Below, piece after piece: positions 2,513 through 20,839 of a DNA stretch of 64,000 bases. Position numbers and translations under genes: made by a program. Origin of the DNA: Hyphomicrobiales bacterium (GTDB lineage Bacteria; Pseudomonadota; Alphaproteobacteria; Rhizobiales; Aestuariivirgaceae); contig JANOPL010000038.1 of NCBI GenBank assembly GCA_031421835.1, forward strand, positions 1,972-65,971. Direction: 5' to 3'. Numbering within the stretch: position 1 is the stretch's first letter; each line of letters opens with the position of its first letter. Below the pieces are notes generated by a model. The model ran no database searches and was not told the DNA's origin. It was given only the letters and a program-made list of their open reading frames with translations.

Positions 2513-3604
2513 ATGTCCACCAATCTGCCCATGGTGCGCTTTGACAGAGTTCAAAAAAGCTATGATGGCGAAACACTCGTCGTTAAAAATCTCAATCTCG
2601 AGATTTCCAAAGGTGAGTTTTTGACGATGTTGGGGCCTTCTGGGTCTGGCAAAACAACAACTCTCATGATGTTGGCCGGATTTGAAACGGCAACCCATGG
2701 CGAAATCAGCCTGGCTGGAAAGCCCATCAACCTCGTTGCTCCACACAAGCGGGGCATTGGCATGGTCTTTCAAAACTACGCACTCTTTCCACACATGACC
2801 GTCGGCGAGAATTTGGCCTTTCCGCTGGAAGTGCGAGGAATGAACAGGGCCGACCGCGAGGCTAAAATCAAACGCGCTTTGGATATGGTGCAGATGGACA
2901 GTTTTGCCAGCCGGCGCACCACCCAACTATCAGGCGGTCAACAACAACGCATTGCGCTGGCTCGCGCACTCGTGTTCGATCCTCAACTGGTCTTGATGGA
3001 CGAACCCTTGGGTGCCCTCGACAAGCAACTGCGAGAACACATGCAATTTGAAATCAAACACTTGCATGATCGTTTGGGAGTTACAGTTGTTTATGTAACT
3101 CATGATCAAGGAGAAGCTCTTACCATGTCAGACCGGATTGCAGTGTTCAACGATGGCATCATCCAGCAGTTGGCCACCCCGGCTGATCTTTATGAGCGCC
3201 CTGAAAACAGCTTTGTTGCCGGCTTCATTGGTGAGAATAATAAACTGCCGGGTGTGGTTGAAGACATTTCGGCCGGGCGTTGCCTGGTGAAATTGGCCAC
3301 AGGCGAAGTGATTGATGCAACGCCGGTCAACGTAAGTCAAAAAGGCCAGAAAACGCTCGTATCCATCAGGCCTGAACGGGTTGAACATCAAAGTATCAAT
3401 GCACCAAGGTCCGCCCACGTGATAGATGCAGAGGTTTTGGAGTTCATTTACATGGGTGATGTTTTTCGCACGCGATTGCGCGTTGCAGGTTCAAATGACT
3501 TCGTAATGAAAAACAAAAATGCCCAGGGCGAAGCGCCACTTCGCCCGGGTCAGAAGATCAAGGTTGGCTGGCACCCTTCGGATGCGCGCGCACTCGACCC
3601 TTGA
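2513..3604 (+). CDS. potA: Polyamine-family ABC transporter ATP-binding protein
   Basis: Walker A GPSGSGKT, LSGGQQQR signature, Walker B LMDEP, C-terminal TOBE domain. Confidence 0.9.
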   Translation: MSTNLPMVRFDRVQKSYDGETLVVKNLNLEISKGEFLTMLGPSGSGKTTTLMMLAGFETATHGEISLAGKPINLVAPHKRGIGMVFQNYALFPHMTVGENLAFPLEVRGMNRADREAKIKRALDMVQMDSFASRRTTQLSGGQQQRIALARALVFDPQLVLMDEPLGALDKQLREHMQFEIKHLHDRLGVTVVYVTHDQGEALTMSDRIAVFNDGIIQQLATPADLYERPENSFVAGFIGENNKLPGVVEDISAGRCLVKLATGEVIDATPVNVSQKGQKTLVSIRPERVEHQSINAPRSAHVIDAEVLEFIYMGDVFRTRLRVAGSNDFVMKNKNAQGEAPLRPGQKIKVGWHPSDARALDP

Positions 3605-3676
3605 AAGCAGCATCTGGCATTTTGGCCGGGAGCCAGAGAAATAAGACAATTGGAATGAAAACATAGGGAGATAAAA

Positions 3677-4756
3677 ATGAAGAAACTACTGATACTTTCA
3701 ACGGCACTGGCAGGCTTTGCTGTGCAAGCCCATGCCGCTGAATTGACTGTCATGTCATGGGGCGGAGCCTATGGAGCAGCCCAAACTGAGGCCCACGTGA
3801 AGCCTTGGGCCGCCAAGAGTGGCTTTGCCGCCAAGATGGTAGACAATGATAACCCTGCTCAACCCATCAAAGCGCAGGTTGAAGCGGGCAACGTCACGGT
3901 GGACGTGGCTTCGGTCGAATATGCAGATGCTATTCGTCTCTGCGATGAAGGTGTTCTGGAGAAGATCGACATGGCTTTGTTGCCCGCAGGCAATGACGGA
4001 ATTGCAGCAAAGGACGACTTCCTTCCCGGTGCTGTGACCGAATGCGGCGTATCGACAGATATTTGGGCTAATGTTTATGGCTATGACTCAACAAAGCTGA
4101 GCGGAGACAAAGCGCCCAAAACAGCCGCTGATTTTTACGACCTCGGCAAATTTCCCGGAAAGCGGGGATTGCGCAAAGGCGCAAAGGGTAATCTTGAGTT
4201 CGCATTGATTGCCGATGGCGTGCCAGCTGCTGACGTCTACAAGACTTTATCGACGCCGGAAGGCGTTGACCGTGCATTCAAGAAAATGGACACCATTAAA
4301 AAAGACGTGGTGTGGTGGGAAGCTGGCGCCCAGCCTCCGCAGCTGCTCGCCGACGGCGAAGTGGTGTTGACTACAGCTTACAATGGCCGCCTTTTTAATG
4401 CTGCAATCGGTGAAGGCAAGCCATTCCAAATCGTTTGGGATGGTCAAGTCTATGAAAACGAAATGTATGTCATCCCAAAGGGCGCTCCGAACATGGAGAA
4501 AGCCAAGGAGTTCATCGCCTATGCAACATCAACGGATGGTCTGAGGGCGCAAGCGCAGCACATTTCATACGGCCCGGCCCGCAAGTCGTCCATGAAAGAC
4601 AAACTGATGTTCAAGGACGGCAAGACTGAAATGGCGTCTCACCTTCCAACGGCTGAAGCCAATTTGACGAATGCGCTCTTGTCGGATTTCCAGTTCTGGG
4701 TTGATCGTGACGCTGAGCTGAACGAACGCTTCAATGCTTGGTTGGCTTCAAACTAA
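3677..4756 (+). CDS. potD: Polyamine-family ABC transporter substrate-binding protein
   Basis: Signal peptide, SWGGAYG motif, WWEAGAQPPQLLADGEV, position in the operon. Confidence 0.8.
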   Translation: MKKLLILSTALAGFAVQAHAAELTVMSWGGAYGAAQTEAHVKPWAAKSGFAAKMVDNDNPAQPIKAQVEAGNVTVDVASVEYADAIRLCDEGVLEKIDMALLPAGNDGIAAKDDFLPGAVTECGVSTDIWANVYGYDSTKLSGDKAPKTAADFYDLGKFPGKRGLRKGAKGNLEFALIADGVPAADVYKTLSTPEGVDRAFKKMDTIKKDVVWWEAGAQPPQLLADGEVVLTTAYNGRLFNAAIGEGKPFQIVWDGQVYENEMYVIPKGAPNMEKAKEFIAYATSTDGLRAQAQHISYGPARKSSMKDKLMFKDGKTEMASHLPTAEANLTNALLSDFQFWVDRDAELNERFNAWLASN

Positions 4757-4802
4757 CACATTCATGCCGGGTGCCTGGTTATTTTCATTCTAGGGTTGAT
4801 CA

Positions 4803-6044
4803 GTGACAACACAACCGCTCCAAACAGCTGACGGTACGCCGCTTAAAGTGGCATTGGCCCGGGCTCAACGCCGCGCCAAGCTGCGCGCGTTCTTGCTTGT
4901 GTTTCCACTGCTAGCCTTTGTGGTGCTGAGTTTCATCGTTCCAATTTTTCAAATGTTGGAACGGTCGGCTTACAACACAATGTTTTCCAAGAATGCGCCA
5001 ACCCTTGCACAATGGTTCAGCGAACATCCGCAAGGGTCTGAGATTGACGAGTCGGCCTATGTCGCGCTGGTCTCTGATCTTGCCGCCATGCAGAAGGCCA
5101 AAACCTCAGGCGAGGCAGGGCTACGCATCAATTTCACTTTTCCAGGCACCGTGTCGCTGTTCAAGGCTGGTGGGCGTGAAGCAGAGAAACTGCAACCGCC
5201 TTTCAAAGACAAGATGGTGGCTCTCAATCCCCTTTGGGGTGAGGCACGGTTGTGGGCTTCACTCCGCACCGCCTCATCATCCTGGTCCACAGACTTTTAC
5301 ATGGCGTCGAGTGACAGAAGACGCGCAGCTGATGGAGATATTGAACGCGTTGTGCCTGAACAACGCATCTACGTTTATCTCTTCATCAAGACGTTCATCC
5401 TCTCAGGTTTGATCACGTTCATTTGTCTGCTGTTGGCCTTTCCAATTTCGCACTTGCTGGCCACCTTGCCCACGGCAAGAGCAAACCTGCTGATGATCCT
5501 TGTACTGCTGCCCTTCTGGTCATCACTCCTGGTGCGCACAACGTCCTGGATGGCCTTGCTTCAACAACAAGGTGTTGTGAACGATGCGCTTGTGGCAATC
5601 GGGTTGCTTGCGGATGAAAGCCGCATCCCAATGATCTACAACCAGACTGGCACAATCATCGTGATGACGCATATTCTGCTGCCTTTCATGGTTTTGCCGC
5701 TGTACTCTATCATGCGCGTGATCCCGCCAAGCTATGCCCGTGCGGCCCGTTCGCTGGGTGCTTCAAGCTGGACGACATTCCGCCGCATCTACTTGCCCCA
5801 AACCTTGCCGGGCATTGCGGCAGGCTCGCTTCTCGTTTTCATTCTGGCGGTAGGTTACTACATCACACCAGCCTTGGTCGGTGGGGCGGACGGTCAGCTA
5901 ATCTCGAATTTGATTGCGTTCCACATGAGTAAATCGAATTGGTCGATGGCTGCGGCCCTTGCAGCGATTTTGCTGGCTGCTGTTCTGATACTCTATTGGC
6001 TCTATGACAGACTGATCGGTATCGATCGTCTGAAATTCGGATGA
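4803..6044 (+). CDS. potB: Polyamine-family ABC permease
   Basis: LLPFWSSLLVRT and EAA-like RAARSLGA motifs; multiple TM segments. Confidence 0.85.
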   Translation: MTTQPLQTADGTPLKVALARAQRRAKLRAFLLVFPLLAFVVLSFIVPIFQMLERSAYNTMFSKNAPTLAQWFSEHPQGSEIDESAYVALVSDLAAMQKAKTSGEAGLRINFTFPGTVSLFKAGGREAEKLQPPFKDKMVALNPLWGEARLWASLRTASSSWSTDFYMASSDRRRAADGDIERVVPEQRIYVYLFIKTFILSGLITFICLLLAFPISHLLATLPTARANLLMILVLLPFWSSLLVRTTSWMALLQQQGVVNDALVAIGLLADESRIPMIYNQTGTIIVMTHILLPFMVLPLYSIMRVIPPSYARAARSLGASSWTTFRRIYLPQTLPGIAAGSLLVFILAVGYYITPALVGGADGQLISNLIAFHMSKSNWSMAAALAAILLAAVLILYWLYDRLIGIDRLKFG

Positions 6045-6048
6045 CCTG

Positions 6049-7023
6049 ATGGCCCTTCCAGCCTACACCACACCCCTCGAGCGCATCTGGCATTACGTCT
6101 ACAAGGCTATTTGCGTGGCCGTCTTCATCTTCTTGATCGCACCGATCCTGATTGTTGTTCCACTGTCTTTCAATGTTGAACCCTATTTCAGCTTTACCAA
6201 AGCCATGCTGGAGTTTGACCCCGCCGGTTATTCTCTGCGCTGGTACGATACTCTGTTGACCTTCGGGCTAAATGCGCCGGAAGATGCGGTGCGTGATGGT
6301 TCGTGGTGGGGCCAAGTCTGGCGCGAAGCCACTTGGGTCCGTGCGGCCAAAAATTCAATCTGGATCGGATTCTGGGCAACGCTGCTTGCCACGGTACTTG
6401 GCACTGTTGCCGCCTTGGGATTATCGCGACCTGAAATGCCCTATCGACGCTTGATCATGGCACTGCTGATTTCGCCAATGATTGTTCCAGTCATCATCAT
6501 CGCCACAGGTCTGTTCTTTGCTTATTCAGCCGCCTGCATTCCAAACGACAATGCACTGGGTGCACTGCTGGCCCCCTTCCTGTCGCCCAAGGGTTGCCTT
6601 GCCAATACTTATCTCGGCGTCATTCTCGCCCATGCCATGCTGGGCATTCCGTTTGTCATTATTACCGTCACAGCAACGCTTACAGGATTTGATCAATCCT
6701 TGATCAGGGCGGCGGCGTCACTTGGCGCAACTCCTTCGCAAACATTCTTTAAGGTGATCATGCCACTAATTTTGCCAGGCATTATTTCGGGTGCATTGTT
6801 TGCCTTCGTCACATCTTTTGATGAGGTGGTTGCGGTGTTGTACATTGCTGGACCTGACCAACAAACCATTCCCCGCCAAATGTGGAACGGGATTCGCGAG
6901 GCCATCAGCCCCGCCATTCTCTCGGTCGCGACGATACTTGTCGTTGTTTCAATATGCTTACTGTCGACGGTTGAATTGTTGCGACGACGCACTGAGAAAC
7001 TGCGTGGCGTCAAACCGATCTAG
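6049..7023 (+). CDS. potC: Polyamine-family ABC permease
   Basis: RAAASLGA, FVTSFDEVV, QTIPRQMW motifs. Confidence 0.85.
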   Translation: MALPAYTTPLERIWHYVYKAICVAVFIFLIAPILIVVPLSFNVEPYFSFTKAMLEFDPAGYSLRWYDTLLTFGLNAPEDAVRDGSWWGQVWREATWVRAAKNSIWIGFWATLLATVLGTVAALGLSRPEMPYRRLIMALLISPMIVPVIIIATGLFFAYSAACIPNDNALGALLAPFLSPKGCLANTYLGVILAHAMLGIPFVIITVTATLTGFDQSLIRAAASLGATPSQTFFKVIMPLILPGIISGALFAFVTSFDEVVAVLYIAGPDQQTIPRQMWNGIREAISPAILSVATILVVVSICLLSTVELLRRRTEKLRGVKPI

Positions 7024-7026
7024 GCT

Positions 7027-7476
7027 TTAGTCTTCTGCAATATCCTCGGCCCAAAGCTCTGGTTTTTCCTTGATGAAGCGCGTCATCAGGGCAATGCATT
7101 CCGGGTCGTTGGCCACAATCACTTCCACACCACGAGACCGCAGAAAATCTTCGTTGCCGCCAAATGTCGTGTTCTCGCCGATAACAACACGGGGGATGCT
7201 GAATTGTATGATCGTGCCCGTGCACATCATGCAAGGACTCAGCGACGTATAAAGTGTTGTGTCGCGATAGGTTTTCTGGCGTCCCGCTTTACGAAGTGCG
7301 TCCATCTCACCATGTGCAATCGGATCACCACCTTGAACCCGTTGATTGCGGCCTTTTGAAACCAATTGCTCGCCACGCGCCAACACTGATCCGATGGGGC
7401 AACCGCCTTCATCGAAACCCGCTTTCGCCTCATCATAGGCTTCACGTAAAAAACGCTTGTCGGTGGCGGTGAGCAT
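7027..7476 (-). CDS. Zn-dependent nucleoside/cytosine deaminase (yeast FCY1-like fold)
   Basis: HGE and SPCMMC zinc-binding motifs. Confidence 0.85.
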   Translation of the reverse strand: MLTATDKRFLREAYDEAKAGFDEGGCPIGSVLARGEQLVSKGRNQRVQGGDPIAHGEMDALRKAGRQKTYRDTTLYTSLSPCMMCTGTIIQFSIPRVVIGENTTFGGNEDFLRSRGVEVIVANDPECIALMTRFIKEKPELWAEDIAED

Positions 7477-7523: not shown

Positions 7524-9227
7524 CTAATCGAGGATTGCATTTGCCACAATAGATGCCCCTCGGATTGTGGCTTGTGCGGCGGCCAGCGCTGTTGGCAATT
7601 CGACTACGATGTAGTGTCGCGCATCAGTTTCGGCTTCAGATTGCAGCTCGCCGCCTCGTGCAAACTCTGAGGCTTTTGCCAAGTAAGCTGCAGCAATGAA
7701 TGCAGCGAGGGCGCGCGTATAAAACGTTGCAGCGGAAAGTGCGTTTGCATTGTCGAGTTGCTTGAGCTGCATCGTCAATGATTGCATCTCGGCAGTCAGA
7801 CGAGCGGCGACACTGTCCCCCGCAATCATGGCCAGCGATGGTTGGCAAGCCAAAAGCATTTCTGCGAGCGCATGACCATTATCCAAGTTCAGCTTCCGGG
7901 TGACGAGGTCAATGGCTTGAATACCGTTGGTTCCCTCATAGATCGGCAAGATGCGCGCATCGCGGTAATATTGAGCGACCCCGGTTTCTTCAACAAAGCC
8001 CATGCCGCCATGCACCTGAATGGCTGTTGAAGTGACTTCAACGGCAATGTCCGTGGCATAGGATTTCGCCAGAGGTGTAAGCAAAGATGCGCAAGACATC
8101 GCCTTCCTTCTTCCCTCCTCATCTTCGGCGCGGGAACTGGCGTCGATCGCGTTGGCAGTCGCCATGCACAGCATCCGGGCGGCGGCGGTTTTGGCCCGCA
8201 TCTCAATCAACATGCGTTTGACATCAGGGTGATGGATGATTGGGCTTGATCCTTCACTTCCTGGAAGACGCCCTTGTTTTCGTTCGGCAGCAAACAAAAA
8301 TGCCGCCTGCATTGCCCGTGATGCAAGAGCCACGCCCTGTACCGCCACAAGCGCGCGGGCATTGTTCATCATTGTGAACATGCAATTCAGACCGCGGTTT
8401 TCTTCGCCAACCAACCAGCCTTGGGCACCGCCATTGTCGCCATAGACCATGGTGCAGGTGGGTGAGGCGTGGATGCCCATTTTGTGTTCAAGCGAATGAC
8501 AGCGAAGATCATTTCGGGTTCCATCGGGCAAAAACTTCGGAACCAAAAATAACGAAATGCCTTTGGTGCCTGCCGGAGCATCCTCCAGTCGCGCCAGAAC
8601 CAGATGCACAATGTTTGACGTCAGTTCGTGGTCACCATAGGTAATGTAAATTTTGTTACCCGTGATGAAGTAGCTGCCGTCTTCAGAGCGCCTTGCCTTG
8701 CAGCGGAGATGTGACAGATCAGAGCCCGATTGAGGTTCTGTCAGGTTCATGGTGCCTGACCACTCTCCAGAAACCAGCTTGGGCAGATACCTCTGTTTCA
8801 ATTCTTCTGTGGCATGAGCAGAGATGGCTTCGATGGCGCCCGTCGTCAACAATGGACAAAGGGCAAATGACAAACACGCCGCATTCCAAATCTCAGTGCA
8901 GGCCGCTGATAGCACAAACGGCAAGCCTTGGCCGTCAAAGCGCAGCGGCCCCGTCAGGCTGTTCCAGCCGCCGGCGCACCAGTCCACATAAGTCTCACGC
9001 CAACCCGGCGGTGTGATGACTTTATCTTCAACAAGTCTTGCTGGAGCTTGATCACCTATCCAATTCAGTGGTGCCATACGCTCGGCAGCAAACCTGCCCG
9101 CTTCATCCAGAATGACTTGCGCATCAGAGGGGGACAGATCGCTGTAAATACTTTCGCCAAGATTACCTGCCGTTTGCATGGCAAGAAGAATGCGAGAAAC
9201 AGGGGGTTTGTAAGTCATCGAAATCAC
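7524..9227 (-). CDS. dmdC: Acyl-CoA dehydrogenase, DmdC-like (3-methylmercaptopropionyl-CoA dehydrogenase)
   Basis: GTMNLTEPQSGSDL, KMGIHASPT, QVHGGMGF and IYEGTNGIQA motifs; GTGA overlap with the upstream crotonase. The dmdC name relies on operon context. Confidence 0.75.
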   Translation of the reverse strand: MISMTYKPPVSRILLAMQTAGNLGESIYSDLSPSDAQVILDEAGRFAAERMAPLNWIGDQAPARLVEDKVITPPGWRETYVDWCAGGWNSLTGPLRFDGQGLPFVLSAACTEIWNAACLSFALCPLLTTGAIEAISAHATEELKQRYLPKLVSGEWSGTMNLTEPQSGSDLSHLRCKARRSEDGSYFITGNKIYITYGDHELTSNIVHLVLARLEDAPAGTKGISLFLVPKFLPDGTRNDLRCHSLEHKMGIHASPTCTMVYGDNGGAQGWLVGEENRGLNCMFTMMNNARALVAVQGVALASRAMQAAFLFAAERKQGRLPGSEGSSPIIHHPDVKRMLIEMRAKTAAARMLCMATANAIDASSRAEDEEGRRKAMSCASLLTPLAKSYATDIAVEVTSTAIQVHGGMGFVEETGVAQYYRDARILPIYEGTNGIQAIDLVTRKLNLDNGHALAEMLLACQPSLAMIAGDSVAARLTAEMQSLTMQLKQLDNANALSAATFYTRALAAFIAAAYLAKASEFARGGELQSEAETDARHYIVVELPTALAAAQATIRGASIVANAILD

Positions 9228-10015
9228 CCTGCTCCAGGCTCAAGGCGTTTGGTTTTCTTGGTGAAAAATGCCTCCAGTCTTTCCTTGATGTCCGGATTGG
9301 TATGCACGGCCATCGCCAGCAGACCTTCGGCAAATAGCCCGTCAGTTGTCGACATATCGTTGATACGGGCGATGCCGGTTGTAATGGCGAAATTTGTGGT
9401 TGGTGGATGTGTCGCCACTTGTGCCGCAAGCGCCTTGGCTTTGGCAAGCGCCTCGCCGGATCCGACGACCTCGTGACATAGTCCGATATCCAATCCGCGC
9501 TGCGCATCATAGGTGCGGGCTGATAACATCATGTCGACCATGCGCGCGGGCGTTATGATGCGGGCGACACGCACCGTAGCGCCGCCACCCGTAAAAATAC
9601 CGCGCTGTCCCTCGGGCAAAGCAAAAAATGTCGATGGGTCAGCAATGCGCACATGGGTTGCCGCTGCTAGTTCAAGACCACCTCCAACAACGGCTCCCTG
9701 TAGTGCTGCAATCACGGGAATGCCGCTGAATTGAATGATGTCGAAGGTCCGATGCCACGTTTGACACAAAGACAAGAATTCCAGTGGCGTGCGATCTTTG
9801 TCATAATGCTCGCGCAAATCGAGGCCGGCGCAAAAATGTGCACCCTTGGCCGCCAACACAAAACTGCGCGTGCCCGCAGGTGGCTTTTGGAACACATCTG
9901 CGATTTCCTGCAGCATGACTTCATTGATGGCATTGCGGACATTCTCGCGCGCCAGCGTGACGATGGTCACAGCACCTTCGGTTTCTACAGTGATATATTT
10001 TTGCGTCATGTTCAA
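9224..10015 (-). CDS. dmdD: Crotonase-family hydratase, DmdD-like (methylthioacryloyl-CoA hydratase)
   Basis: HFCAGLDLREH, AVVGGGLELA, FALPEGQRGIFTGGGAT and TNFAI closely match the Ruegeria pomeroyi DmdD sequence as I recall it. Confidence 0.8.
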   Translation of the reverse strand: MNMTQKYITVETEGAVTIVTLARENVRNAINEVMLQEIADVFQKPPAGTRSFVLAAKGAHFCAGLDLREHYDKDRTPLEFLSLCQTWHRTFDIIQFSGIPVIAALQGAVVGGGLELAAATHVRIADPSTFFALPEGQRGIFTGGGATVRVARIITPARMVDMMLSARTYDAQRGLDIGLCHEVVGSGEALAKAKALAAQVATHPPTTNFAITTGIARINDMSTTDGLFAEGLLAMAVHTNPDIKERLEAFFTKKTKRLEPGAG

Positions 10016-11610
10016 ATTGCCTTTGCGCGTTGGCGCAGCTTGTACTTTTCGATCTTGCCTGTCGATGTTTTTGGCAAGGTTTCAAAAACATAGTGTTTCG
10101 GCACTTTGAACCCTGCAAGATATTGGCGAACGAAGGCTTTCAGTTCATCCGCAGTTGCTGAAGCACCGGTTTTCAGTTCTACAAAAGCACAAGGGGTTTC
10201 TCCCCATTTGTAATCGGGCTTTGCCACCACGCCAACCGCACTGATTGCGGGGTGGCGATAAAGAGCCGCTTCAACCTCTATCGAAGATATGTTTTCGCCG
10301 CCCGAAATAATGATGTCTTTAAAGCGATCTTTTATCTCAATGAATCCGTCTGGATGTTGCACTGCCACATCACCGGAATGGAACAGGCCACCGGCAAAAG
10401 CCGCTTCCGTTGCTGCTTCGTCTTTATGATAACCTTTCATGATCGTGTTTCCCCGCAGCATGATTTCACCCATGGTCTTGCCATCCCTCGGCAAAATCTC
10501 ACCCGTTTGGGTGTCACGAATATCAGCCGTTTCCGCCATCGGAAAACGCACGCCCTGGCGCGCTTTGATCTTGGCACGTTCGGCAAAATCAACATTGTCC
10601 CAGTCGTCATGCCAAACCGATTGCACCACGTGGCCATAGGTTTCGGTGAGGCCATAGACTTGCATGACGTTAAAACCCAGCGCTTCAACTTTTTCAAGCA
10701 CGGCAGCAGGCGGTGGGGCACCTGCAGTCATGGCTTGCACGGTGCGGGGTACCTTCTCCGCTGCCTCAACCAACATCGACAGCACAATTGGCGCTCCCCC
10801 AAAATGCGTTACGCCGTGCTGACGGATTGCGTCATTGATGGCTTGGGCTGACACCTGCCTGCAACACACAATAGTGGCGGCAAGGGCGGTCATCGTCCAT
10901 GCATGTCCCCAACCGTTACAATGGAACATGGGCACGGTGTAGAGGTATGCGGGGTGACCTGAAAGCCCCCAGCCCGCAATGGTACCAAGTGCCATCAGAT
11001 AAGCGCCGCGGTGGTGGTAAAGAACGCCCTTTGGTTTGCCGCTGGTGCCTGATGTGTAGTTAAGGCACAGCGTTTGCCATTCATCGTCAGGTCTGAGAGG
11101 CACGAAATTCTGTGTGTCGGCATTTGTCAAATCCGCGTGGCGAACACTGTTTGAAAGTGCCGTACCCGGTCCGCCCAGATCGATGATTATTGGGGCCTTG
11201 TTTTCAATACACTTCAAAGCCGCTTCGGCCAGCGCAGCACATTGGCGATCCAACATCAGAACGCGCGTTTCAGCATGATCAAAAATGTAAGCCACAGTTT
11301 CGAAATCAAGCCTGATATTGATGGTGTTGAGAACAGCACCCGCCATGGCGACGGCAAAGTGCGCTTCAAACATTTCTGCTGTATTGGGTGCCAATACTGA
11401 CACGACGTCGCCCGGTTTCACACCCAGGCGGACGAGGCCTGCTGCCAAACCTAGACAGCGCTGGCGCACTTCAGACCACGTGAAGCGGCGCGCGTCGTCT
11501 ATCAGCGCCACACGATCAGGATAAACCTCTGCCGTGCGGTCGAGGAAAGACAATGGAGTCAACGGAACAAAGTTGGCGGCGCGGGGGCGGAGATAGGTTG
11601 CTTCGCTCAT
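10012..11610 (-). CDS. dmdB: Acyl-CoA synthetase, DmdB-like (MMPA-CoA ligase)
   Basis: ANFVPLTPLSFL N-terminus, YTSGTSGKPKG AMP-binding loop, YGLTET, TSTGKI. The dmdB name relies on operon context. Confidence 0.75.
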   Translation of the reverse strand: MSEATYLRPRAANFVPLTPLSFLDRTAEVYPDRVALIDDARRFTWSEVRQRCLGLAAGLVRLGVKPGDVVSVLAPNTAEMFEAHFAVAMAGAVLNTINIRLDFETVAYIFDHAETRVLMLDRQCAALAEAALKCIENKAPIIIDLGGPGTALSNSVRHADLTNADTQNFVPLRPDDEWQTLCLNYTSGTSGKPKGVLYHHRGAYLMALGTIAGWGLSGHPAYLYTVPMFHCNGWGHAWTMTALAATIVCCRQVSAQAINDAIRQHGVTHFGGAPIVLSMLVEAAEKVPRTVQAMTAGAPPPAAVLEKVEALGFNVMQVYGLTETYGHVVQSVWHDDWDNVDFAERAKIKARQGVRFPMAETADIRDTQTGEILPRDGKTMGEIMLRGNTIMKGYHKDEAATEAAFAGGLFHSGDVAVQHPDGFIEIKDRFKDIIISGGENISSIEVEAALYRHPAISAVGVVAKPDYKWGETPCAFVELKTGASATADELKAFVRQYLAGFKVPKHYVFETLPKTSTGKIEKYKLRQRAKAI

Positions 11611-12710
11611 AGGAAAGGCAACTCCACAAGTTTTGCTGCGTTAAGCCCCGAAGCCCGGTGAATGGCAATAGTTTCCCCCACCGATACGGCTGACGAAATC
11701 AAAGCAAAACCAATGTTGGCCTTCATGCGTGGTGACCAGACGCAGTTTGTCATCTTTCCAACACTGCTGCCCTTGTGGAAAATTTCTTCCAACCTGAACC
11801 CCAGAGGCGCTGGTTTATTGCCTTCCAGAATCACGCCCAATTGATGCCGCTTCACACCCTCGGCTTTGACTTTGCGCAGGGCCTGAATGCCGATCACATC
11901 ATCAGGGACATCCAGATCAACATACTTGCCCAATCGTACCTCGAACGGATTTGTGTTGTCGTCCGTATCACCTCCTACCGACACCAGACCACTTTCTACG
12001 CGTTCGGGTGTTGCGGGCGCACCAGGGCCAATGTCCCAAGGCTTTCCCGCTTCCTTGAAAATGTTCCAAAGCTTGGTGCCTTTGGTCCCGTCTTTCAGGT
12101 AGATTTCAAAGCCACCTTGCTTGGACCAACCCGAACGTTGAACAGCAACGGGAATGCCATCAATGACAGCGTCCTTGAACCAGAAATATTTGAGAGCTCG
12201 CACCCATTCTCCACAGACGTGGGCCACAACGTCTTCTGCCATCGGGCCTTGCAGCGCCATGGGTGAGACATCGGGCTCGCTGATCTCTACATTCAAGCCG
12301 CGTTCTGCTGCAATGGCACTGGCCCAGAACCAGATGTCACTATCTGCAATCGACAACCAATAAAGGTCTTCAGCATGCTTCAGCAAAATTGGATCGTTGA
12401 TGACAGTGCCCCGATGGTTGCAGAGCGGCACATATTTGCCCTGACCGAATTTGCAAGTTGAAAGATCACGAGGACTGAGAATTTGTGCGAGTTTGCCAGC
12501 GTCCGGACCTTTCAACTGGACCTGCCGTTCGACACCCACGTCCCATTGGGACACGCCATTGATCAGCCGCCAGTATTCGGCTTCCGGATTGCCATAGGAC
12601 GTTGGCATGATCATGCGGTTATAGACATTGGCGGCGACCATGCCTTCCGCTGCGGCTGCTTCAAAAAACGGGGAAGGACGAACGCGGGCAGTTGGGGAAA
12701 ACGAGAACAT
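11607..12710 (-). CDS. dmdA: GcvT-family demethylase, DmdA-like (DMSP demethylase)
   Basis: Start reassigned to ATG 12710 (AGAGG RBS). WDVGVERQV, NDPILLK, WLSIADSD and RSGWSKQGGFEIY match DmdA motifs. ATGA overlap with dmdB. Confidence 0.7.
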   Translation of the reverse strand: MFSFSPTARVRPSPFFEAAAAEGMVAANVYNRMIMPTSYGNPEAEYWRLINGVSQWDVGVERQVQLKGPDAGKLAQILSPRDLSTCKFGQGKYVPLCNHRGTVINDPILLKHAEDLYWLSIADSDIWFWASAIAAERGLNVEISEPDVSPMALQGPMAEDVVAHVCGEWVRALKYFWFKDAVIDGIPVAVQRSGWSKQGGFEIYLKDGTKGTKLWNIFKEAGKPWDIGPGAPATPERVESGLVSVGGDTDDNTNPFEVRLGKYVDLDVPDDVIGIQALRKVKAEGVKRHQLGVILEGNKPAPLGFRLEEIFHKGSSVGKMTNCVWSPRMKANIGFALISSAVSVGETIAIHRASGLNAAKLVELPFL

Positions 12711-12786
12711 CGGCGCCTCTTGGTGTGAATGTTTCAACGTGATTGTCAGTGAATGAGGGCTTGCGTCAAACAACCGTTTCAATGAT

Positions 12787-12807
12787 CATGACAGCGTTTT
12801 TGTTATG
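12787..12807. promoter_or_regulatory. Imperfect palindrome between the divergent dmdA and LysR genes; candidate LysR operator
   Basis: CATGAC-N9-GTTATG, one mismatch from a perfect inverted repeat. Confidence 0.35.
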
Positions 12808-12826
12808 CATAGGTTGGATATGTGAA

Positions 12827-13753
12827 ATGCAGCCCGAATTCCCACCTCTCATCTGGTTGCGTGCATTTGAAGCCGCAGCCAGACATTTGAGCTTTACGGA
12901 TGCTGCCCGTGAATTAAACCTGACGCAGGCAGCGGTTTCAAAACACATCAAATCGCTCGAATTGAACTTGCGTCACCAACTCTTCATCCGGCGGACACGC
13001 AGTCTGGAGCTCACCAAACTGGGCGAAGCCTATCTGCCGAAAGTCCACGATGCTTTCGAGCGCTTGGCAATTGGAACGCGCGAGGTGTTTGGTAGGCGTC
13101 GCTCCCAAGACTTGACGCTGCGGTGTGCGGTTTCATTCGCTGTCAACTGGTTGGCACCCCGACTGCCGCACTTTCTCGATCAACATCCCGGCAGAAACAT
13201 CAGACTTGTTTCAAGTGTCTGGACCGACGCATTTGACGCTGATGTCTATGATCTCGATATTCAATATGGAACAGGGGACTGGAATGGCGTTCAAAGCCAT
13301 CGACTGAGTTGGGAAACAATTACGCCTCTGTGTGCACCTGCAATGGTTGACCAGCTAAAGTCCCCGCACGATTTAGGATCACAGCGTCTATTGCATGTGT
13401 TGGGCTATCAGGAGGGTTGGGGCACCTGGCTTCGTGCCGCTGGAGCGATGGCTGTCAACCCCGGGCAAGGATTGCAGTTTGATACATCGCTCACAGCTTT
13501 TGAAGTGGCCGCGCAAGGCGGCGGCGTAGCGCTCGGTCGACATTCCCTTGCCACAAGGGACCGATCGGCTGGTCGTTTGGTTGCGCCGTTTGCGTTAGAA
13601 GTTCCTATCAACGAAGCGTTTTATGTACTGGAACCTGTGGGCCGAAAACTGCACCCCGATGCTGCTGCATTTGTCAGCTGGCTGATTCAAACTGCTGCGG
13701 TTGAACACTCGCTCACCGTTGCACCAGTCCATAGATTGCATCGCGCAGGATAA
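12827..13753 (+). CDS. LysR-family regulator (GcvA subfamily), divergent from dmdA
   Basis: PPLIWLRAFEAAARHLSFTDAARELNLTQAAVSKHIKSLE HTH; start reassigned to ATG 12827. Confidence 0.92.
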   Translation: MQPEFPPLIWLRAFEAAARHLSFTDAARELNLTQAAVSKHIKSLELNLRHQLFIRRTRSLELTKLGEAYLPKVHDAFERLAIGTREVFGRRRSQDLTLRCAVSFAVNWLAPRLPHFLDQHPGRNIRLVSSVWTDAFDADVYDLDIQYGTGDWNGVQSHRLSWETITPLCAPAMVDQLKSPHDLGSQRLLHVLGYQEGWGTWLRAAGAMAVNPGQGLQFDTSLTAFEVAAQGGGVALGRHSLATRDRSAGRLVAPFALEVPINEAFYVLEPVGRKLHPDAAAFVSWLIQTAAVEHSLTVAPVHRLHRAG

Positions 13754-14726
13754 CATTGCTGGTCACGGCATCTTGCGCCGCAATTGCAGTCTGAAGTCGA
13801 TTGTCATCACGCAACTTTCTCACAACCCCACGCATGGCTTCTAAGGTTGCAATATTGGCACTGCATTCCGCGACCGGATCCAAGCCTGTGGTATCCGGAA
13901 AGGTGTCAAAGTAAATCGGCCGATCATAGTTGATGTGTTCCAGCACATAAATCAATTCTATGGTCTGGACAGGATGTACAGTTCCTACCATCAGTCCATC
14001 ATCTCGCTTGGCATAGCCATCGTTCAAGTGCACACCGAAAAGTTTTTTCTTCCTTGCGGCCAAGGCCACAGCATAAGCTGGCATTTCATCCGCATAGAGC
14101 ACGTGGGCGAAATCAATGGTGACGCCGACATTTTTGCGGCCAATTTCCTGAATGGCCAAGAGTGTTGTGCCAATGTCCGGCATCAGCGCAAAGCTGCGGG
14201 GCTCATTGGGTTTGTACTCGATGCTGACCTCACACGTCGGCACGTGGTCGGCCACTTCAGAAATCGCCTCCAGAGTTTGATCCCACAGGCGCGCATAGTC
14301 GGCCTGAAACGAATAATCAAAACCATCCTGTCCCATCCACAAGGTCATAAGGGAACCGCCGAGTTCCAGCATTTCGTCAAGGCCGCGTTTGGTCTGGTCA
14401 ATTGCGAGGCGGCGCAGTTTTGCGTCGGGGTTGGTGAATGCGCCGATCTTGAAACCCGGATCGCTGTAGTAGCGCATGGCAAACCCGTTGACGGATAAGC
14501 CCAGCCCGTCAAGATGACGCTTCATTTCTTTCAATTCAACACCTTCAAGGTGGTCCGGAAAATTCAGATCAACAGCGTTCAAACCCGGCACTGTTGCGGC
14601 ACGCGACAGCAAACCGAATACACCGGGCTGGTCGCTGCTGCCAGCATGCGCCTTTGACCCGCCGATTTTGAAAGAGTTTAATCTTGCGGCGTATTTATAG
14701 GGTTTTAAGAGGGGTTGGCTGGTCAT
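13713..14726 (-). CDS. Xylose-isomerase-like TIM-barrel sugar isomerase
   Basis: EYKPNEPR, GVTIDFAH, HLNDG...DDGL and YFDTFP metal ligands. Confidence 0.8.
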   Translation of the reverse strand: MTSQPLLKPYKYAARLNSFKIGGSKAHAGSSDQPGVFGLLSRAATVPGLNAVDLNFPDHLEGVELKEMKRHLDGLGLSVNGFAMRYYSDPGFKIGAFTNPDAKLRRLAIDQTKRGLDEMLELGGSLMTLWMGQDGFDYSFQADYARLWDQTLEAISEVADHVPTCEVSIEYKPNEPRSFALMPDIGTTLLAIQEIGRKNVGVTIDFAHVLYADEMPAYAVALAARKKKLFGVHLNDGYAKRDDGLMVGTVHPVQTIELIYVLEHINYDRPIYFDTFPDTTGLDPVAECSANIATLEAMRGVVRKLRDDNRLQTAIAAQDAVTSNVILRDAIYGLVQR

Positions 14727-14773
14727 AAGATGCACTTCTCACGCGATGCAGTTGTTGTAAAGAATGTATCACC

Positions 14774-15220
14774 TCAAAGTGCAATAACACCTTTGCGCAA
14801 GATGAAGCAGCCGTAGGGACCGGGATCCGATGTGCGGACGATGGCGAAGGAATTCTTCGCGGCTTGGTAAAAGTCAAAACGATCATATGCACCCATGATG
14901 ACCTTGCGTTGTTCGCACCCATCAATCGTCGTCTGCATTCTGCTAAAAATTGGTACAGTTCCGTCAGGGTCGCCCACCACGCGCATGCGCATGACAGGTT
15001 GCTCCACAAATCGATCGAGCGGCATCAACGACAGTATCGCCTCTGTCGCCTTGGGAATGCTACAGCCTGGCAGGTCAATCAATTTTCCATGTGTGGTGTG
15101 TTTGGCAATCGTCACAGCGGGATGATTGACATCGCACAGGACGATGTCATCTCCGTGCCCCATCAACATCAGTACATATAAGAGCTCGGCTGAAATGACA
15201 GGGTCAATGTGGCGTAACAT
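14774..15220 (-). CDS. RbsD/FucU family sugar mutarotase/pyranase
   Basis: MGHGDDIVLCDVNHP and RFDFY...YGCFILRKGV motifs. Confidence 0.88.
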   Translation of the reverse strand: MLRHIDPVISAELLYVLMLMGHGDDIVLCDVNHPAVTIAKHTTHGKLIDLPGCSIPKATEAILSLMPLDRFVEQPVMRMRVVGDPDGTVPIFSRMQTTIDGCEQRKVIMGAYDRFDFYQAAKNSFAIVRTSDPGPYGCFILRKGVIAL

Positions 15221-15231
15221 CAGCAGTCTCC

Positions 15232-16110
15232 TTAACTGTTACCGCTTACGAACGTAGCGGCATATCTGTTAGCAGATGCGCAAGCGTCAACGAGGGCAAC
15301 GCCTAGGGCCAGCTCGGCAGCGAGTTTGCCAACAAAACAATCGCCTGCCCCATGAGTAGACACAACGTCTACGGGATGAGCGGCAATTTCCGTTGTTTCA
15401 ATTTTTGGACCTGCAACCACTAACCCGTCGCCACCAAGTGTAACGATGATGGCATAGTGGAGTGAAATTTGTGCGGCCAAAACCGCCCGGGCTGACTTTC
15501 GGTCTGTGACGGACTGACCAAAAATCGCCTCCGCTTCGATGCGATTGACGATGAGAACATCAAGGTTTTGAAGCAGGTCCGCATGGAGCTTTCGCGCAGG
15601 CGCGGCATTCAGCACCACTTGAGAGCCATGCTTTTTGGCCGCTCGTGCAGCGGCAATATTTGCGTCTTCTGGAATTTCATTCTGCAAAACGAGAACTTTT
15701 GCCCCTCCCAGCTTCGTCATCTCAGACTCAATGGTTGCCGCGTCGATGGCAAGGTTTGCCCCAGACACAATCACGGCACCATAGTCGCCATTGTCCTGCA
15801 CGATGGCAACGCTCATGCCTGAACCGAGCAGCGGGTCCCTCGCCACGCATGTTTGGTCGACTTGGGCATCAGCCAGATTTGCCAAGAGACTTTCACCAAA
15901 AGCATCATTGCCGACGCAACCTATCATGGCGGTACGTACGCCTGAACGTGATGCGTGAACCGCCTGATTGCCACCCTTGCCCCCGCATACCTGGGACCAT
16001 GCACTTCCCACCATGGTTTCGTCGATGCGGGGAATGGTCAGTGCTTTGACAACAATATCCAAATGCAGACTGCCGCAGACCAGAACGTCGAATTTTGTGG
16101 CACTCGTCAT
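15232..16110 (-). CDS. PfkB/ribokinase-family sugar kinase
   Basis: GGKGGNQA, LQNEIP, VLNAAPA and STHGAGDCF motifs. Confidence 0.88.
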   Translation of the reverse strand: MTSATKFDVLVCGSLHLDIVVKALTIPRIDETMVGSAWSQVCGGKGGNQAVHASRSGVRTAMIGCVGNDAFGESLLANLADAQVDQTCVARDPLLGSGMSVAIVQDNGDYGAVIVSGANLAIDAATIESEMTKLGGAKVLVLQNEIPEDANIAAARAAKKHGSQVVLNAAPARKLHADLLQNLDVLIVNRIEAEAIFGQSVTDRKSARAVLAAQISLHYAIIVTLGGDGLVVAGPKIETTEIAAHPVDVVSTHGAGDCFVGKLAAELALGVALVDACASANRYAATFVSGNS

Positions 16111-16179
16111 CCATACTCCGAGCCAAATGGACTTGTTTCTGACGTTGTCAAAGCTCTGGCTGACTCCGGAGTCAATACC

Positions 16180-17784
16180 TCACAGCAGGCTGATGGCCTT
16201 GTCGGCCAGTGCCATGGTTGGGGCATTGGTATTACCAGAAGGGACAAAAGGCATCGCTGATGCATCGATAACACGTAAGCCCCTTATGCCGCGCACCCGA
16301 AGTTTTGTGTCCAAAACCGCCATTTCATCACTATCGACACCCATGCGACAGGTGCCAACAGGGTGCCAATTTGTTTTGACGGTGCGTTTGCAATGTTCGG
16401 CGAGATCTGCGTCACTGGTGATTGCGGAACCTGGTAGCAGCTCAGCTGAAATGCGTTGTGCAAGTGGTTGTTGAGCCAGCATGCGCCGTGCAAACTTCAA
16501 TCCGGCAATTTCAATTTTGATATCTTCGGGATCGGCCAGGTAGTTGTTGTCGATCACAGGGCGGTCAAACACATCGGCAGACCGAAGTTGAACATTGCCG
16601 CGGGATTTGGGTCGGAGCAGACACGCATTGATGGTCACGCCATCCTGTGATGTTGCACCTTTGACATCGCCATCCAAATAGACCGACGGCACGCAGTACA
16701 TTTTCAGGGTTGGGCGGTCTCCACCCTCCGGGTCGATGTAGGCGCAAGCTTCCACGCCGTTGCTTGTCACAGGGCCGGTGCCGAACATTAAATATTGCAA
16801 TCCATTGCGAATGGCTTTCAGGCCTTTGTCTTCGCCGAAGTATCCGTAGTGACCATTGGTGGCTGCCACCACTGGCACCTCATGATGGTCTTGCAGGTTT
16901 TCCCCCACACCTTTCAGATCAACAACTGGTTCGATGCCGAAACTTTGAATGTGCCGGGCGGGCCCGATGCCTGACAGCATCAGAAGCTTGGGCGAGTTAT
17001 AGGCACCTGCGGCCATCAGCACTTCGCCATCGCAGCGGGCGGTTTTTGTTTGGCCCGCTTGAATGTAGCTGACGCCTACGCATTTCTTGCCCTCAAGAAT
17101 GAGTTTATGAACTGTGGCGCCCGTCTCAACGCTGAAATTGGGATTGGACTGAATGGGGTTCAAAAATGCCTGCACGCCATTCCAGCGTCGATTTTTGAAC
17201 GTTGTGTATTGCATGGTGCCAACGCCCGCTTGCTGCGCACCATTGAAGTCAGGGTTATGGGAAATGCCGAGGCCTTGCGCAGCCAGAATATAATCTTCCG
17301 TCAACTGGCAGCGGCGACCAACACCTGACACATGCAAGGGACCGCCCACACCGTGCCAGTGGTCATTGAAGTCATGGTTATATTCCATGCCGCGAAAATG
17401 TGGGAGCATGTCAGCATAAGACCAGCCGCTTTTCCCGCCCAAGAATTTGTCCCAGTGATCGTAGTCGCTTGATTGTCCGCGCGTGTAAACCATTGCGTTG
17501 ACCGATGTACCGCCACCCAGAACCGCAGCTTGCCCCACGCCCGGTGCCCTGCCGTTTAAATGTTTCTGCGGCACGGGTTCGTGCATTTCAGTGACGGAAC
17601 CGCCCTTGACAACAATCATCCACGCTGCAGGCATTGGTAACAGGAAACGCGCAAGGCCAGGTGCTTTTGCAGGCCCCCGTTCCAGCATCAGGACTTTGGC
17701 GTTTTTGTCTTTGACCAGTCGCCAAGCTGCCACACAGGCGGCGGAGCCTCCACCCACGATGATGTAGTCAAACGTTGCCGTCAC
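16180..17784 (-). CDS. GMC-family FAD oxidoreductase
   Basis: [44 protein letters not shown] and GNTNAPT motifs. Confidence 0.9.
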
Positions 17785-18785
17785 GCGGTCATCACCAGTC
17801 CCTGGTCGTTGAAGCGGTGCATACGGTCGGCATGGGGCTTCAAATTGATGCTATCGCCGGGTTTTCCAGCAAACTCACCGGGTGCGCGAACGACCAAACG
17901 GCCAATATCACCTGCGTCCACATGCAGGAATGAGTCGGATCCCAAATGTTCAGTGAGCAGAATTTTGCCAGCCCAACCTGCTTTGCCGGCTACAATATCA
18001 ATGTGTTCCGGGCGAATGCCGACGGTGGTGGCCTTCAGTTTGCCAGCTTCTGCGCCCGTCACAAAATTCATTTTCGGCGAACCGATGAAGCCCGCCACGA
18101 ACAAGGACGTTGGACGATTGTACAAGTCAAGCGGCGAACCCACCTGTTCGATGTGGCCTTTGTTCAACACCACAATGCGATCCGCCATGGTCATGGCTTC
18201 AACCTGGTCGTGGGTCACATAGATGCTGGTTGAGCCTAAATCTTTGTGCAACTGCATGATGAAAATACGCATGTTGACGCGGAGTGCTGCATCAAGGTTT
18301 GATAGCGGTTCATCAAAGAGAAAAGCCTTGGGGTTGCGTACAATGGCACGACCAATGGCAACACGCTGGCGCTGACCGCCGGACAGTTGACCGGGCTTGC
18401 GGTCAAGATAGTCGGTCAAGTTCAGTGTGGCAGCTGCTTTTGAAACCTTTGCATCGATCTCGCTTTGCGGCATCTTCGCCATTTGCAACGGAAAGCCGAT
18501 GTTCTTTCGGACACTCATGTGAGGGTAAAGTGCGTAGGATTGAAACACCATTGCCAAGCCACGTTCGGACGGGCCAACAGCCGCGTAGTCTTTGCCTTCG
18601 ATAACAATTTCGCCCGAAGTTGTGTCTTCAAGGCCCGCTATCATGCGGAGCAATGTGGATTTGCCACAGCCTGATGGGCCTACAAAAACCACAAACTCCC
18701 CTTTGTTGATATCAAGATCTGCCCCCGGAATGATTACGGCATCGCCGAACACCTTGCGAACTTTTCTGAGAGAAATATGCGACAT
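17781..18785 (-). CDS. smoK: Polyol ABC transporter ATP-binding protein (SmoK/MtlK type)
   Basis: [16 protein letters not shown] and [10 protein letters not shown] motifs; operon context. Confidence 0.82.
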
Positions 18786-19834
18786 TATTTCACTGCTCCG
18801 AATGTAAGACCACGTACCAGCTGTCGTTGCGAGAACCAGCCGATGACAAGAATAGGAGTAATGGCCATGATTGATGCAGCAGAAAGTTTTGCCCAGAACT
18901 GGCCTTGCGGGTTGGTGTATTCCGAAATCAGAAAGCTCAGCGGCGCGGCACTCTTTGTGGTGAGACTCAGTGTCCAGAAGGCTTCATTCCATGACAAGAT
19001 GAGACTTAAAAGGCAGGTTGAAACAATGCCTGGAATGGCCATGGGCGTGAGTATGCGAACCAGTTCACTCCACAAGCCCGCACCATCCATGCGGGATGCC
19101 TCAAGAATCTCAACCGGAATTTCCTTGAAGTAAGTGTAGAGCATCCAGATCATGATGGGCAGGTTGAACAGCATCATCAACGGCACCATGCCCCAATGGC
19201 TGTCAAAGATTGTGTACTCACGCAGGTCGAGGCCATGGCCCCAGTCCTTGAAGATCAGACCGTTGCGGTTGAAAATCAGGAAGATGGGCACCAGTGCGCC
19301 TGCTGGCGGCATCATCTTGGTGGAGAGAATCCACAGCAGTGAGTCTTGCGTGCGCCTTGTCCAGACCCAGATGGTGGGCGGGATGATCACCATGAACAAC
19401 AGGAAAAAACCAAGCCAGGCGTTGGTGACGACCCAACCTTGGGCATAGAGAACGAGGCAGGCCACTGCTGCCGTGCCCAGCACAATACCAAGCCACGTAA
19501 TGCCGGTGAGTTTGCTCGCATGCTCGGCCCGTGGCGCAAACGCCATTGACCATGCGGCAGGTACAGCGAAAATGAGACCGAGGAGCGTAGACAGTCCGGC
19601 GATAATAATCGTGTTGATGAGGTAGCCGACATAATCGGAACGGCGTTGCACCTCGGCAAAATTTTCCATGGTCCAAGGCGACACAAACAAGGTTTGCGGC
19701 AGGGAATAAGCGTCAGACTCGGACTTGAAGGCTGCAATGGCAGTCCACAAGATCGGGAAAAACATGAGGAGGCCAATTGTCCATGCGAGAAGACCGATAA
19801 GCCGTGTCCGGGTGGGAGAGGTTTTCATGGCCAT
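18785..19834 (-). CDS. smoG: Polyol ABC permease (SmoG/MtlG type) with an internal hydrophobic insertion
   Basis: C-terminal [24 protein letters not shown] and WNEAFW motifs. Confidence 0.8.
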
Positions 19835-19837
19835 GAT

Positions 19838-20704
19838 CTAGTTTTCCAGATTTTTGCCGACAAGGCGCACGAGGAAAATTGAAACGATATTGGCCAGCAC
19901 CACCGCGATAAGGCCACCTGCTGCGGCTGCGCCTACATCATTGGCGTTATTCAATTGTGAATACACGAGATACGTCAGGTTGCCGGCTAATCCGCCGGTG
20001 CTGGTCACTTTAATTTCCGCGAACGTATTCATCAAAAAAATGGTCTGGATCAAAATGACAACCGTGATCGGACGGGAGAGATGGGGCAACACGATATGAC
20101 GGAAGTACGCCCAGGACTTTGCTCCATCCATCGAAGCAGCATCTTTTTGCTCGGAATCGAGGGATTGCAAAGATGTCAACAGGATGAGAGCCGAATATGG
20201 CAGCCATTGCCAAGCGACAATCATGCCAACAGAAAACAGCGGGATCGAACCGAACCAATCAAACGGCTGCGTCACGCCGAACCAGCGTTGAATCTCGGCG
20301 AACAATCCGAACACCGGATGCATGATCAAGTTCTTCCAGACCATGGACGACACCGTCGGCATGATGAAGAAGGGAGAAATCATCAGCACACGGACAATAC
20401 CGCGCCCCCAGAATGGTTGATCAAGCAAAATGGCAAGACCTACGCCACCCACCACCGTGGTTACGATGACGCCGCCAACAAGAAGGAACGTGTTGATGAG
20501 ATTCTTGAGGAAAAACGGATCCTTCATGAAGTAGTAGAAATTGTTCCAACCAAAAAAGCGCACAGCGTCTGGGTCCTGCAAGTTGTAGCGCAGGAAGGCG
20601 AAGTAGAAAACCAATGCCAGGGGAATGAAGGCAAACCCCGAAAGAATGCCAACAGAAGGTGCGAGAGCCCATTTGGCAACGGCTTGAGATTGTCTTGTCG
20701 CCAT
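19838..20704 (-). CDS. smoF: Polyol ABC permease (SmoF/MtlF type)
   Basis: MATRQSQ N-terminus, WQWLPYS and DAASMDGA motifs. Confidence 0.8.
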   Translation of the reverse strand: MATRQSQAVAKWALAPSVGILSGFAFIPLALVFYFAFLRYNLQDPDAVRFFGWNNFYYFMKDPFFLKNLINTFLLVGGVIVTTVVGGVGLAILLDQPFWGRGIVRVLMISPFFIMPTVSSMVWKNLIMHPVFGLFAEIQRWFGVTQPFDWFGSIPLFSVGMIVAWQWLPYSALILLTSLQSLDSEQKDAASMDGAKSWAYFRHIVLPHLSRPITVVILIQTIFLMNTFAEIKVTSTGGLAGNLTYLVYSQLNNANDVGAAAAGGLIAVVLANIVSIFLVRLVGKNLEN

Positions 20705-20790
20705 ATCAATTGTTCCAAATCGATGAAGTTGTCAGCCTAGGGGAAGTGGAAGTAGAAGTCCGAGATATTTCCATTTCTGCGCGGCAGACG

Positions 20791-20826: not shown

Positions 20827-20839
20827 CTCGGGAGGAAGA

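Follow-up and report, generated by a model that had tools for sequence, protein, structure and literature searches.

The subject of this analysis is a 64,000-nucleotide stretch of DNA from a Hyphomicrobiales bacterium (the window, a word used here for the whole stretch that was analysed), and more precisely a cluster of four intact open reading frames (ORFs) found in tandem on its minus strand at positions 7524–12710, in the order A-B-D-C. Their products are related to enzymes of the demethylation pathway of dimethylsulfoniopropionate (DMSP), and a regulatory gene lies next to them on the opposite strand. The features of the locus are as follows:

11607–12710, minus strand: gene A, DmdA-like GcvT-fold methyltransferase of 367 amino acids (aa), belonging to a sister clade of canonical DmdA
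10012–11610, minus strand: gene B, AMP-forming acyl-coenzyme A (CoA) synthetase of 532 aa, PRK08162 type
9224–10015, minus strand: gene D, crotonase of the DmdD family, 261 aa from ATG 10009 or 263 aa from TTG 10015
7524–9227, minus strand: gene C, long acyl-CoA dehydrogenase of the DmdC/FadE type, 567 or 564 aa depending on a start at 9227 or 9218
12711–12826, no strand: divergent control region of 116 bp, with a conserved box and a promoter-like site
12827–13753, plus strand: GcvA-type LysR regulator, 308 aa from ATG 12827, with Pfam matches to HTH_1 and LysR_substrate

The right-hand limit of 12710 given to the cluster by an earlier examination of the letters alone (the sequence-only reading) is right and corresponds to the start of gene A. 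The same reading described three 4-nt start/stop overlaps. The one joining A to B (ATGA, 11607–11610) is genuine: the sole nearby start of gene B is this ATG, and a GGAG is found 10–13 nt upstream of it. The two others (TTGA at 10012–10015 and GTGA at 9224–9227) are less secure, as they require rare TTG and GTG starts. In-frame ATG codons at 10009 for gene D (6 nt downstream of the TTG) and at 9218 for gene C (9 nt downstream of the GTG) are at least as likely to be used and would leave spacers of 2 nt after B and 5 nt after D; the database entry for the window's own crotonase (P0127) has 261 aa, in agreement with the ATG start. Whichever starts apply, the genes are packed within ≤5 nt of each other. 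Terminator-like sites in the scanned region do not exceed those of shuffled sequence (10 found versus 8.8 expected), and a promoter scan detected a promoter-like TTGACG-16-GACAAT upstream of the genes, at 12769–12742. Given this packing, the chance level of terminator-like sites and the upstream promoter-like site, the view that A-B-D-C constitute a single operon is well supported.

The divergent GcvA-type LysR gene announced by the sequence-only reading is indeed present, intact, transcribed away from gene A and endowed with both expected domains. The ORF list placed its start at TTG 12743; homology supports ATG 12827. The protein scores 275.8 bits against the GcvA subfamily of NCBIfam, slightly under the cut-off of 288, and orthologues with at least 50% identity are divergent from gene A in 40 of the 58 related loci over which they were counted. 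The intergenic region includes a conserved box (around 12760–12810) that reads, on the minus strand, ATGCATAAC...GAAAC.GT.GTTTGACGCAAG and that is common to loci with the A-B-D-C order and to loci with the order A-dmdE-dmdF-ligase-acuI-dmdD. The LysR regulator probably turns the operon on through this box, in response to the substrate or to an intermediate of the pathway.

Gene A encodes a stand-alone protein carrying the Pfam domains PF01571 (GCV_T) and PF08669 (GCV_T_C), and it is the only gene of its kind in the 3.29-Mb genome. Its best match in the PDB is the DmdA of Pelagibacter ubique (3TFH; 252 bits, 36% identity), the best GcvT reaching 119 bits. Canonical DmdA is defined here as the sequences above the cut-off of the NCBIfam model NF009133 (410 bits), a set that contains the structurally solved DmdA of P. 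ubique; the canonical set drawn from 300 class-level genomes scores 410–677 bits. The reference sequences of P. ubique DmdA and Ruegeria pomeroyi DmdD were taken from alignments and have missing termini. Gene A is about 39–40% identical to the high-scoring canonical DmdAs of loci such as L088 and L091. Canonical DmdA has 77 invariant positions, of which gene A retains 62 and the GcvT paralogues 11. This count was tried as a discriminator within the sister clade and abandoned, the remaining groups of that clade retaining 54–67 of these positions, so that the clade of gene A (the window clade) is not separated from the other paralogues. A tryptophan is held to be DMSP-specific in DmdA, and a serine, a glutamate and a tyrosine to bind folate (PMC7487153); W, E, Y and S are aligned in gene A, with a mapping guessed from the column numbers of that paper.

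Members of the window clade share 68–90% identity and are encoded by Hyphomicrobiales metagenome-assembled genomes (MAGs), Mesorhizobium, freshwater or wastewater Paracoccaceae and a few Sphingomonadales; culturable carriers include Mesorhizobium album VK24D, M. atlanticum CNPSo 3140, M. montanum MSK 1335 and Aliigemmobacter aestuarii CC-PW-75. The nearest relatives of the operon as a whole belong to Hyphomicrobiales MAGs and Mesorhizobium, so the earlier claim that it lies outside the roseobacters holds. These proteins are named 'glycine cleavage system protein T' by NCBI and 'aminomethyltransferase' by IMG, and no paper was found that treats the window clade as a soil or freshwater DMSP demethylase, in a literature search that was not exhaustive and in which such an absence is no proof.

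Gene D exceeds the cut-off of the PRK08150 model (332 bits versus 232), and its best PDB match is the DmdD of R. pomeroyi (4IZB, 47% identity). In the alignment with 4IZB, gene D keeps both catalytic glutamates of DmdD, which we take to be Glu121 and Glu141 in R. pomeroyi numbering. Its close homologues are named '(methylthio)acryloyl-CoA hydratase' by IMG, and it is the only DmdD-like gene of the genome. In a tree built without an outgroup, gene D belongs to a separate subfamily (support 99) that is sister to the true DmdD orthologues. The latter include the D2-type crotonases of sister operons, which are 76–79% identical to R. pomeroyi DmdD and among which this enzyme groups. On its sequence, gene D thus appears to be a paralogue rather than an orthologue of DmdD.

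Gene B scores 764 bits against NF006020 (PRK08162; cut-off 677) and only 280 bits against the DmdB model NF005426 (PRK07008 family), far from its cut-off of 822; by these model scores, it encodes a PRK08162-type enzyme and does not belong to the DmdB family. It is predicted to activate 3-methylmercaptopropionate (MMPA), and possibly acrylate. A second PRK08162 ligase is encoded elsewhere in the genome. Ligases of the same type, 57–58% identical to that of the window, directly follow a canonical dmdA in two other loci (L097:1-3921 and L102:183-4069), where the order is dmdE-dmdF-dmdA-PRK08162 ligase and the DmdA is above the cut-off. The PRK08162 family may represent a third, undescribed type of MMPA-CoA (or acrylate-CoA) ligase in the DMSP pathway. 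The canonical DmdB-type (PRK07008) gene of the genome is split over two contig ends, C152:1762-2388 (248 bits) and C107:1-1254 (606 bits). Three residues differ in the overlap between these ends, which suggests that strain heterogeneity interrupted the assembly at this point; the neighbours of this split gene have no relation to DMSP.

Gene C matches 6IJC, which is deposited as 'Acyl-CoA dehydrogenase family protein' and which we take to be the DmdC structure, with 388 bits, and 'probable acyl-CoA dehydrogenases' (8PNG and others) about equally, with 402 bits. It is the sole long acyl-CoA dehydrogenase of its type in the genome, and its translation contains a YEG motif; the catalytic pair of DmdC consists of a tyrosine and a glutamate, Glu435 (PMC6850173). 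By sequence alone, DmdC cannot be told apart from FadE-like enzymes in general.

The evidence that carries most weight for a function related to DMSP comes from the genomic context. It was surveyed in 48 window-clade loci for which at least 5 kb downstream of A was available. A crotonase of the DmdD family (D or D2) is found downstream of A in 33 of them, in at least four different gene orders. The PRK08162 ligase is present in 26 of these 48 loci and the long dehydrogenase in 19, the exact A-B-D-C order being found in 13. When the search was started from gene D, gene A was adjacent in two of three cases, the third being a D-C pair alone. A second type of operon, found in freshwater Paracoccaceae such as Tabrizicola (L035), involves the same A clade and the same LysR and displays the organization LysR, then on the other strand A-DUF2182-DUF1326-ligase-AcuI-crotonase-OpuAC. 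In such operons, DUF2182 is DmdE and DUF1326 is DmdF, two proteins required for DMSP demethylation in Ruegeria lacuscaerulensis (PMC12992908, 2026). Between this second type and loci L088 and L091, where DmdF and AcuI flank canonical dmdA, these two proteins are 72–76% identical, and the crotonase of the second type shares 76–79% identity with R. pomeroyi DmdD. From the contexts with dmdE, dmdF, AcuI, DmdD and the ligase, it follows that window-clade A and canonical dmdA hold interchangeable places among the same partners.

The phyletic distribution of the two clades fits a replacement rather than a side function, canonical DmdA being absent from 24 of the 25 genomes that carry the window clade and present in all three genomes that carry marine paralogues 57–61% identical. 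The sole genome with both (G320) harbours a window-clade A adjoining a D2 crotonase (L059) and a canonical DmdA above the cut-off. The contexts of the marine paralogues were considered as a clue to the substrate and set aside: in HIMB11 (L078) and Denitrobaculum (L073), they adjoin genes for MarR, a Rieske oxygenase, a short-chain dehydrogenase/reductase and HupE, and no gene of the module. Class-III aminotransferase genes are found near the module in Tabrizicola (L035:4530-6664) and Mesorhizobium (L015:14368-16080), the former being paired with a BKACE beta-keto-acid cleavage enzyme.

Globally, these data make it reasonably probable, short of firm, that the cluster is a LysR-controlled catabolic operon for a sulfonium compound of the DMSP type, most likely DMSP itself. 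Based on homology and gene context, the product of gene A would transfer one S-methyl group to tetrahydrofolate (THF), yielding MMPA and 5-methyl-THF; that of gene B would convert MMPA to MMPA-CoA; that of gene C would oxidise MMPA-CoA to methylthioacryloyl-CoA; and that of gene D would hydrate the latter, releasing methanethiol together with acetaldehyde, CO2 and CoA. The sequence-only reading had presented the operon as the whole DMSP demethylation pathway. What stands of this is that the DmdA, DmdB, DmdD and DmdC classes occur in a chemically sensible order; what does not is the identity of the individual genes, none of which is a textbook Dmd orthologue.

Several observations weigh against DMSP demethylation as the function of this operon. 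Gene A reaches 352.2 bits against the DmdA equivalog NF009133 and thus fails its cut-off, and eight other members of the window clade (Mesorhizobium L015, L040, L053, L058 and others) score 326–370 bits. In trees that combined 80 genomic relatives of gene A with canonical DmdAs and, as outgroup, the GcvT paralogues of the same genome, gene A falls outside the canonical clade, which groups 20 sequences, that of P. ubique 3TFH among them, with a support of 100/100. The window clade (support 100/99) is nested in a separate clade (98/90) with other paralogues that also score below the cut-off. As these two clades are separate, gene A is, by its position in the tree, a protein of a sister clade and not a member of the proven DmdA clade. 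The closest outgroups of gene A are paralogues from genomes that also encode a true DmdA; they lie in unrelated contexts, for instance beside MarR and Rieske oxygenase genes. The comparison with validated Dmd enzymes, proposed earlier as a check on the assignment, thus turns out half unfavourable: gene A does group outside canonical DmdA, with paralogues found in the same genomes as the true enzyme. Moreover, at three residues that never vary in canonical DmdA, the window clade carries replacements, N235A, Y247V and N249G (P. ubique numbering), all of them within the CPN...SYGND block, and these replacements could have changed the choice of substrate. A DmdA-like protein of R. pomeroyi, SPO1648, is reported to be non-functional (PMC12992908); it is not among the 80 best genomic relatives of gene A and was left out of the tree, in which R. 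pomeroyi DmdA was not included by name either. Beyond gene A, a separate canonical DmdB-like gene is found elsewhere in the genome, so that the operon is not the sole candidate for the MMPA-CoA ligase, no SBP56 methanethiol oxidase was found in the genome, and the hosts come from environments poor in DMSP (soil, freshwater and wastewater).

A first alternative keeps the chemistry but changes the natural substrate: A would demethylate another sulfonium or selenonium carboxylate (dimethylselenoniopropionate, an analogue with a hydroxy group or of different chain length, or a sulfonium of plant origin), and the resulting thioether acid would then be processed by B, C and D. This explanation, which we consider rather unlikely, would account for the place of A in the sister clade and for the replaced residues, for the mere 47% identity between the D of the window and DmdD, and for the non-marine hosts. 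It also draws on the other paralogues of the sister clade, which are clearly not DMSP demethylases, since they co-exist with true DmdA and must therefore do something else. It fits poorly, however, with the many A-clade members that adjoin true DmdD orthologues (76–79% identity) and orthologues of the roseobacter-type dmdE, dmdF and acuI genes, and with the near mutual exclusion of the A clade and canonical DmdA across genomes.

The two remaining explanations dissociate A from the other genes. If B, D and C formed a general module for MMPA or short-chain acyl-CoA (for example MMPA derived from methionine), A would be a co-regulated THF-dependent methyl or one-carbon enzyme using an unrelated donor. 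Activated donors besides DMSP are known for GcvT-fold methyl transfer, aryl methyl ethers among them; in the cited literature, DMSP is the only compound from which a stand-alone GcvT-fold protein (DmdA) is shown to transfer the methyl group directly. DmdB- and DmdC-type enzymes, which have broad specificity, are widespread among terrestrial bacteria (PMC5395565), 6IJC is no better a match for C than the 'probable acyl-CoA dehydrogenases' are, and D-C pairs occur without an adjacent A in L120 and L121. Set against these points, the linkage of A to D or D2 in two-thirds of the surveyed loci (33 of 48) across no fewer than four gene orders, and the fact that the genome has no DmdC-like or DmdD-like gene outside this operon, render such a dissociation improbable. 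Even less credible, and in our opinion very improbable, is an operon devoted to acrylate or 3-hydroxypropionate-type C3 acids, in which the role of A would be unrelated to sulfur (supply or detoxification). Sister operons do hold an AcuI-family acryloyl-CoA reductase beside a ligase of the same family, and the best NCBIfam equivalog of C is a clostridial acryloyl-CoA reductase, albeit far under its cut-off (161 versus 640 bits). But the operon of the window has no acuI, the only AcuI-like gene of the genome being on contig C104, D is a DmdD-family protein in which both catalytic glutamates are kept, and the DmdA-like gene would be left unexplained. A function in the catabolism of a DMSP-type sulfonium, most likely DMSP, thus remains our preferred reading.

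The grouping of the four steps in one cluster is not new in itself: a dmdA-acuH-dmdB-dmdC cluster has been published from SAR92, which are marine Gammaproteobacteria (PMC10746254). Its DmdA is 35–40% identical to proven enzymes and peripheral to clades A–E, and it complements a dmdA mutant of R. pomeroyi (PMC10746254). The operon of the window resembles this cluster in uniting the four steps and in its divergent DmdA, functional in the case of SAR92. It differs from it, as far as can be judged from the published description rather than from a comparison of sequences, in that SAR92 is a marine gammaproteobacterial host, its hydratase is called AcuH and not DmdD, its gene order is another one and no divergent GcvA-type LysR is described there. 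Another system whose genes lie partly together is that of 'Ca. Pelagibacter ubique' HTCC1062, where dmdA is said to be partly clustered with ligase and dehydrogenase genes, in a dmdA-dmdB-dmdC neighbourhood reportedly presented by Reisch et al. in 2011; this organism is said to carry a clade-D DmdA of the canonical type and neither DmdD nor a LysR divergon.

In R. pomeroyi, the demethylation genes are mostly dispersed. The DSS-3 strain has the same four enzyme classes and the same predicted chemistry as the operon of the window (PMC5395565, PMC6850173), which differs from it by its sister-clade A, by the ligase family of B and by a D with 47% identity to R. pomeroyi DmdD. Finally, R. lacuscaerulensis carries an operon organized as dmdR and dmdE-dmdF-dinB-dmdA-acuI, controlled by the GntR-type regulator DmdR (Fu et al., EMBO J 2026, PMC12992908). 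Relatives of the window operon (L035, L044 and L011) resemble it in that their gene A, which is of the window clade, stands with orthologues of dmdE, dmdF and acuI. The window operon itself differs from it in having a LysR instead of a GntR-type DmdR and in carrying downstream ligase, hydratase and dehydrogenase genes, and neither dmdE, dmdF, dinB nor acuI.

The idea that the operon is a transferable cassette finds indirect support only. Its distribution is patchy, the module is kept across relatives in variable flanks, and the branching of the A clade cuts across families. However, no integrase or transposase gene was found in the flanks and the G+C content is even, without any composition shift; on these two grounds, the operon was rejected as part of a mobile element.

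Among the neighbouring genes, a gene of the cytidine/deoxycytidylate-deaminase family (7027–7476, minus strand, 149 aa) begins 47 nt past the last stop of the operon, whose strand it shares. As it adjoins the module in no relative, it probably does not belong to the operon. A PotABCD-like ATP-binding cassette (ABC) transporter (2513–7023, plus strand), convergent on the operon, comprises an ATPase, an SBP_bac_8 binding protein and two permeases that are unusually long (413 and 324 aa); it was also excluded from the system, not adjoining the module in relatives. Past the LysR gene lies a sugar-catabolism block (13713–22165, minus strand) that encodes a xylose-isomerase-like TIM-barrel protein, a fucose-mutarotase-like protein, a ribokinase and a sugar ABC transporter, together with a GMC oxidoreductase whose score is under the choline dehydrogenase cut-off.

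Both the complete cluster, in SAR92, and the link with dmdEF and acuI (PMC12992908) are already published. What sets the present operon apart is that it brings together a probable demethylase of the sister clade, a ligase of a third family, an apparent paralogue of DmdD, a GcvA-type LysR with a candidate conserved operator, and hosts that are non-marine and include Mesorhizobium. It is conceivable, though we regard it as doubtful, that the window clade constitutes a second, unrecognised family of sulfonium demethylases that replaces canonical DmdA in non-marine Alphaproteobacteria, including Mesorhizobium, the pocket changes N235A, Y247V and N249G fitting a natural substrate other than DMSP, common in soil, rhizosphere or freshwater. 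If this were true, the label 'glycine cleavage T protein' would at present cover an entire organosulfur or organoselenium pathway leading to volatiles of the methanethiol type.

If A works on DMSP, the methanethiol-forming breakdown of this compound would extend beyond marine roseobacters, SAR11 and SAR92, and the pathway would exist as one compact unit in Alphaproteobacteria from soil, freshwater and wastewater, including nodulating Mesorhizobium. Surveys based on names would miss the window-clade proteins as dmdA. The operon further suggests that a third family of ligases serves this pathway and that a LysR circuit controls it, in contrast to the published GntR-type DmdR. With a different sulfonium as substrate, the operon would stand for a hitherto unknown branch of the organosulfur cycle.

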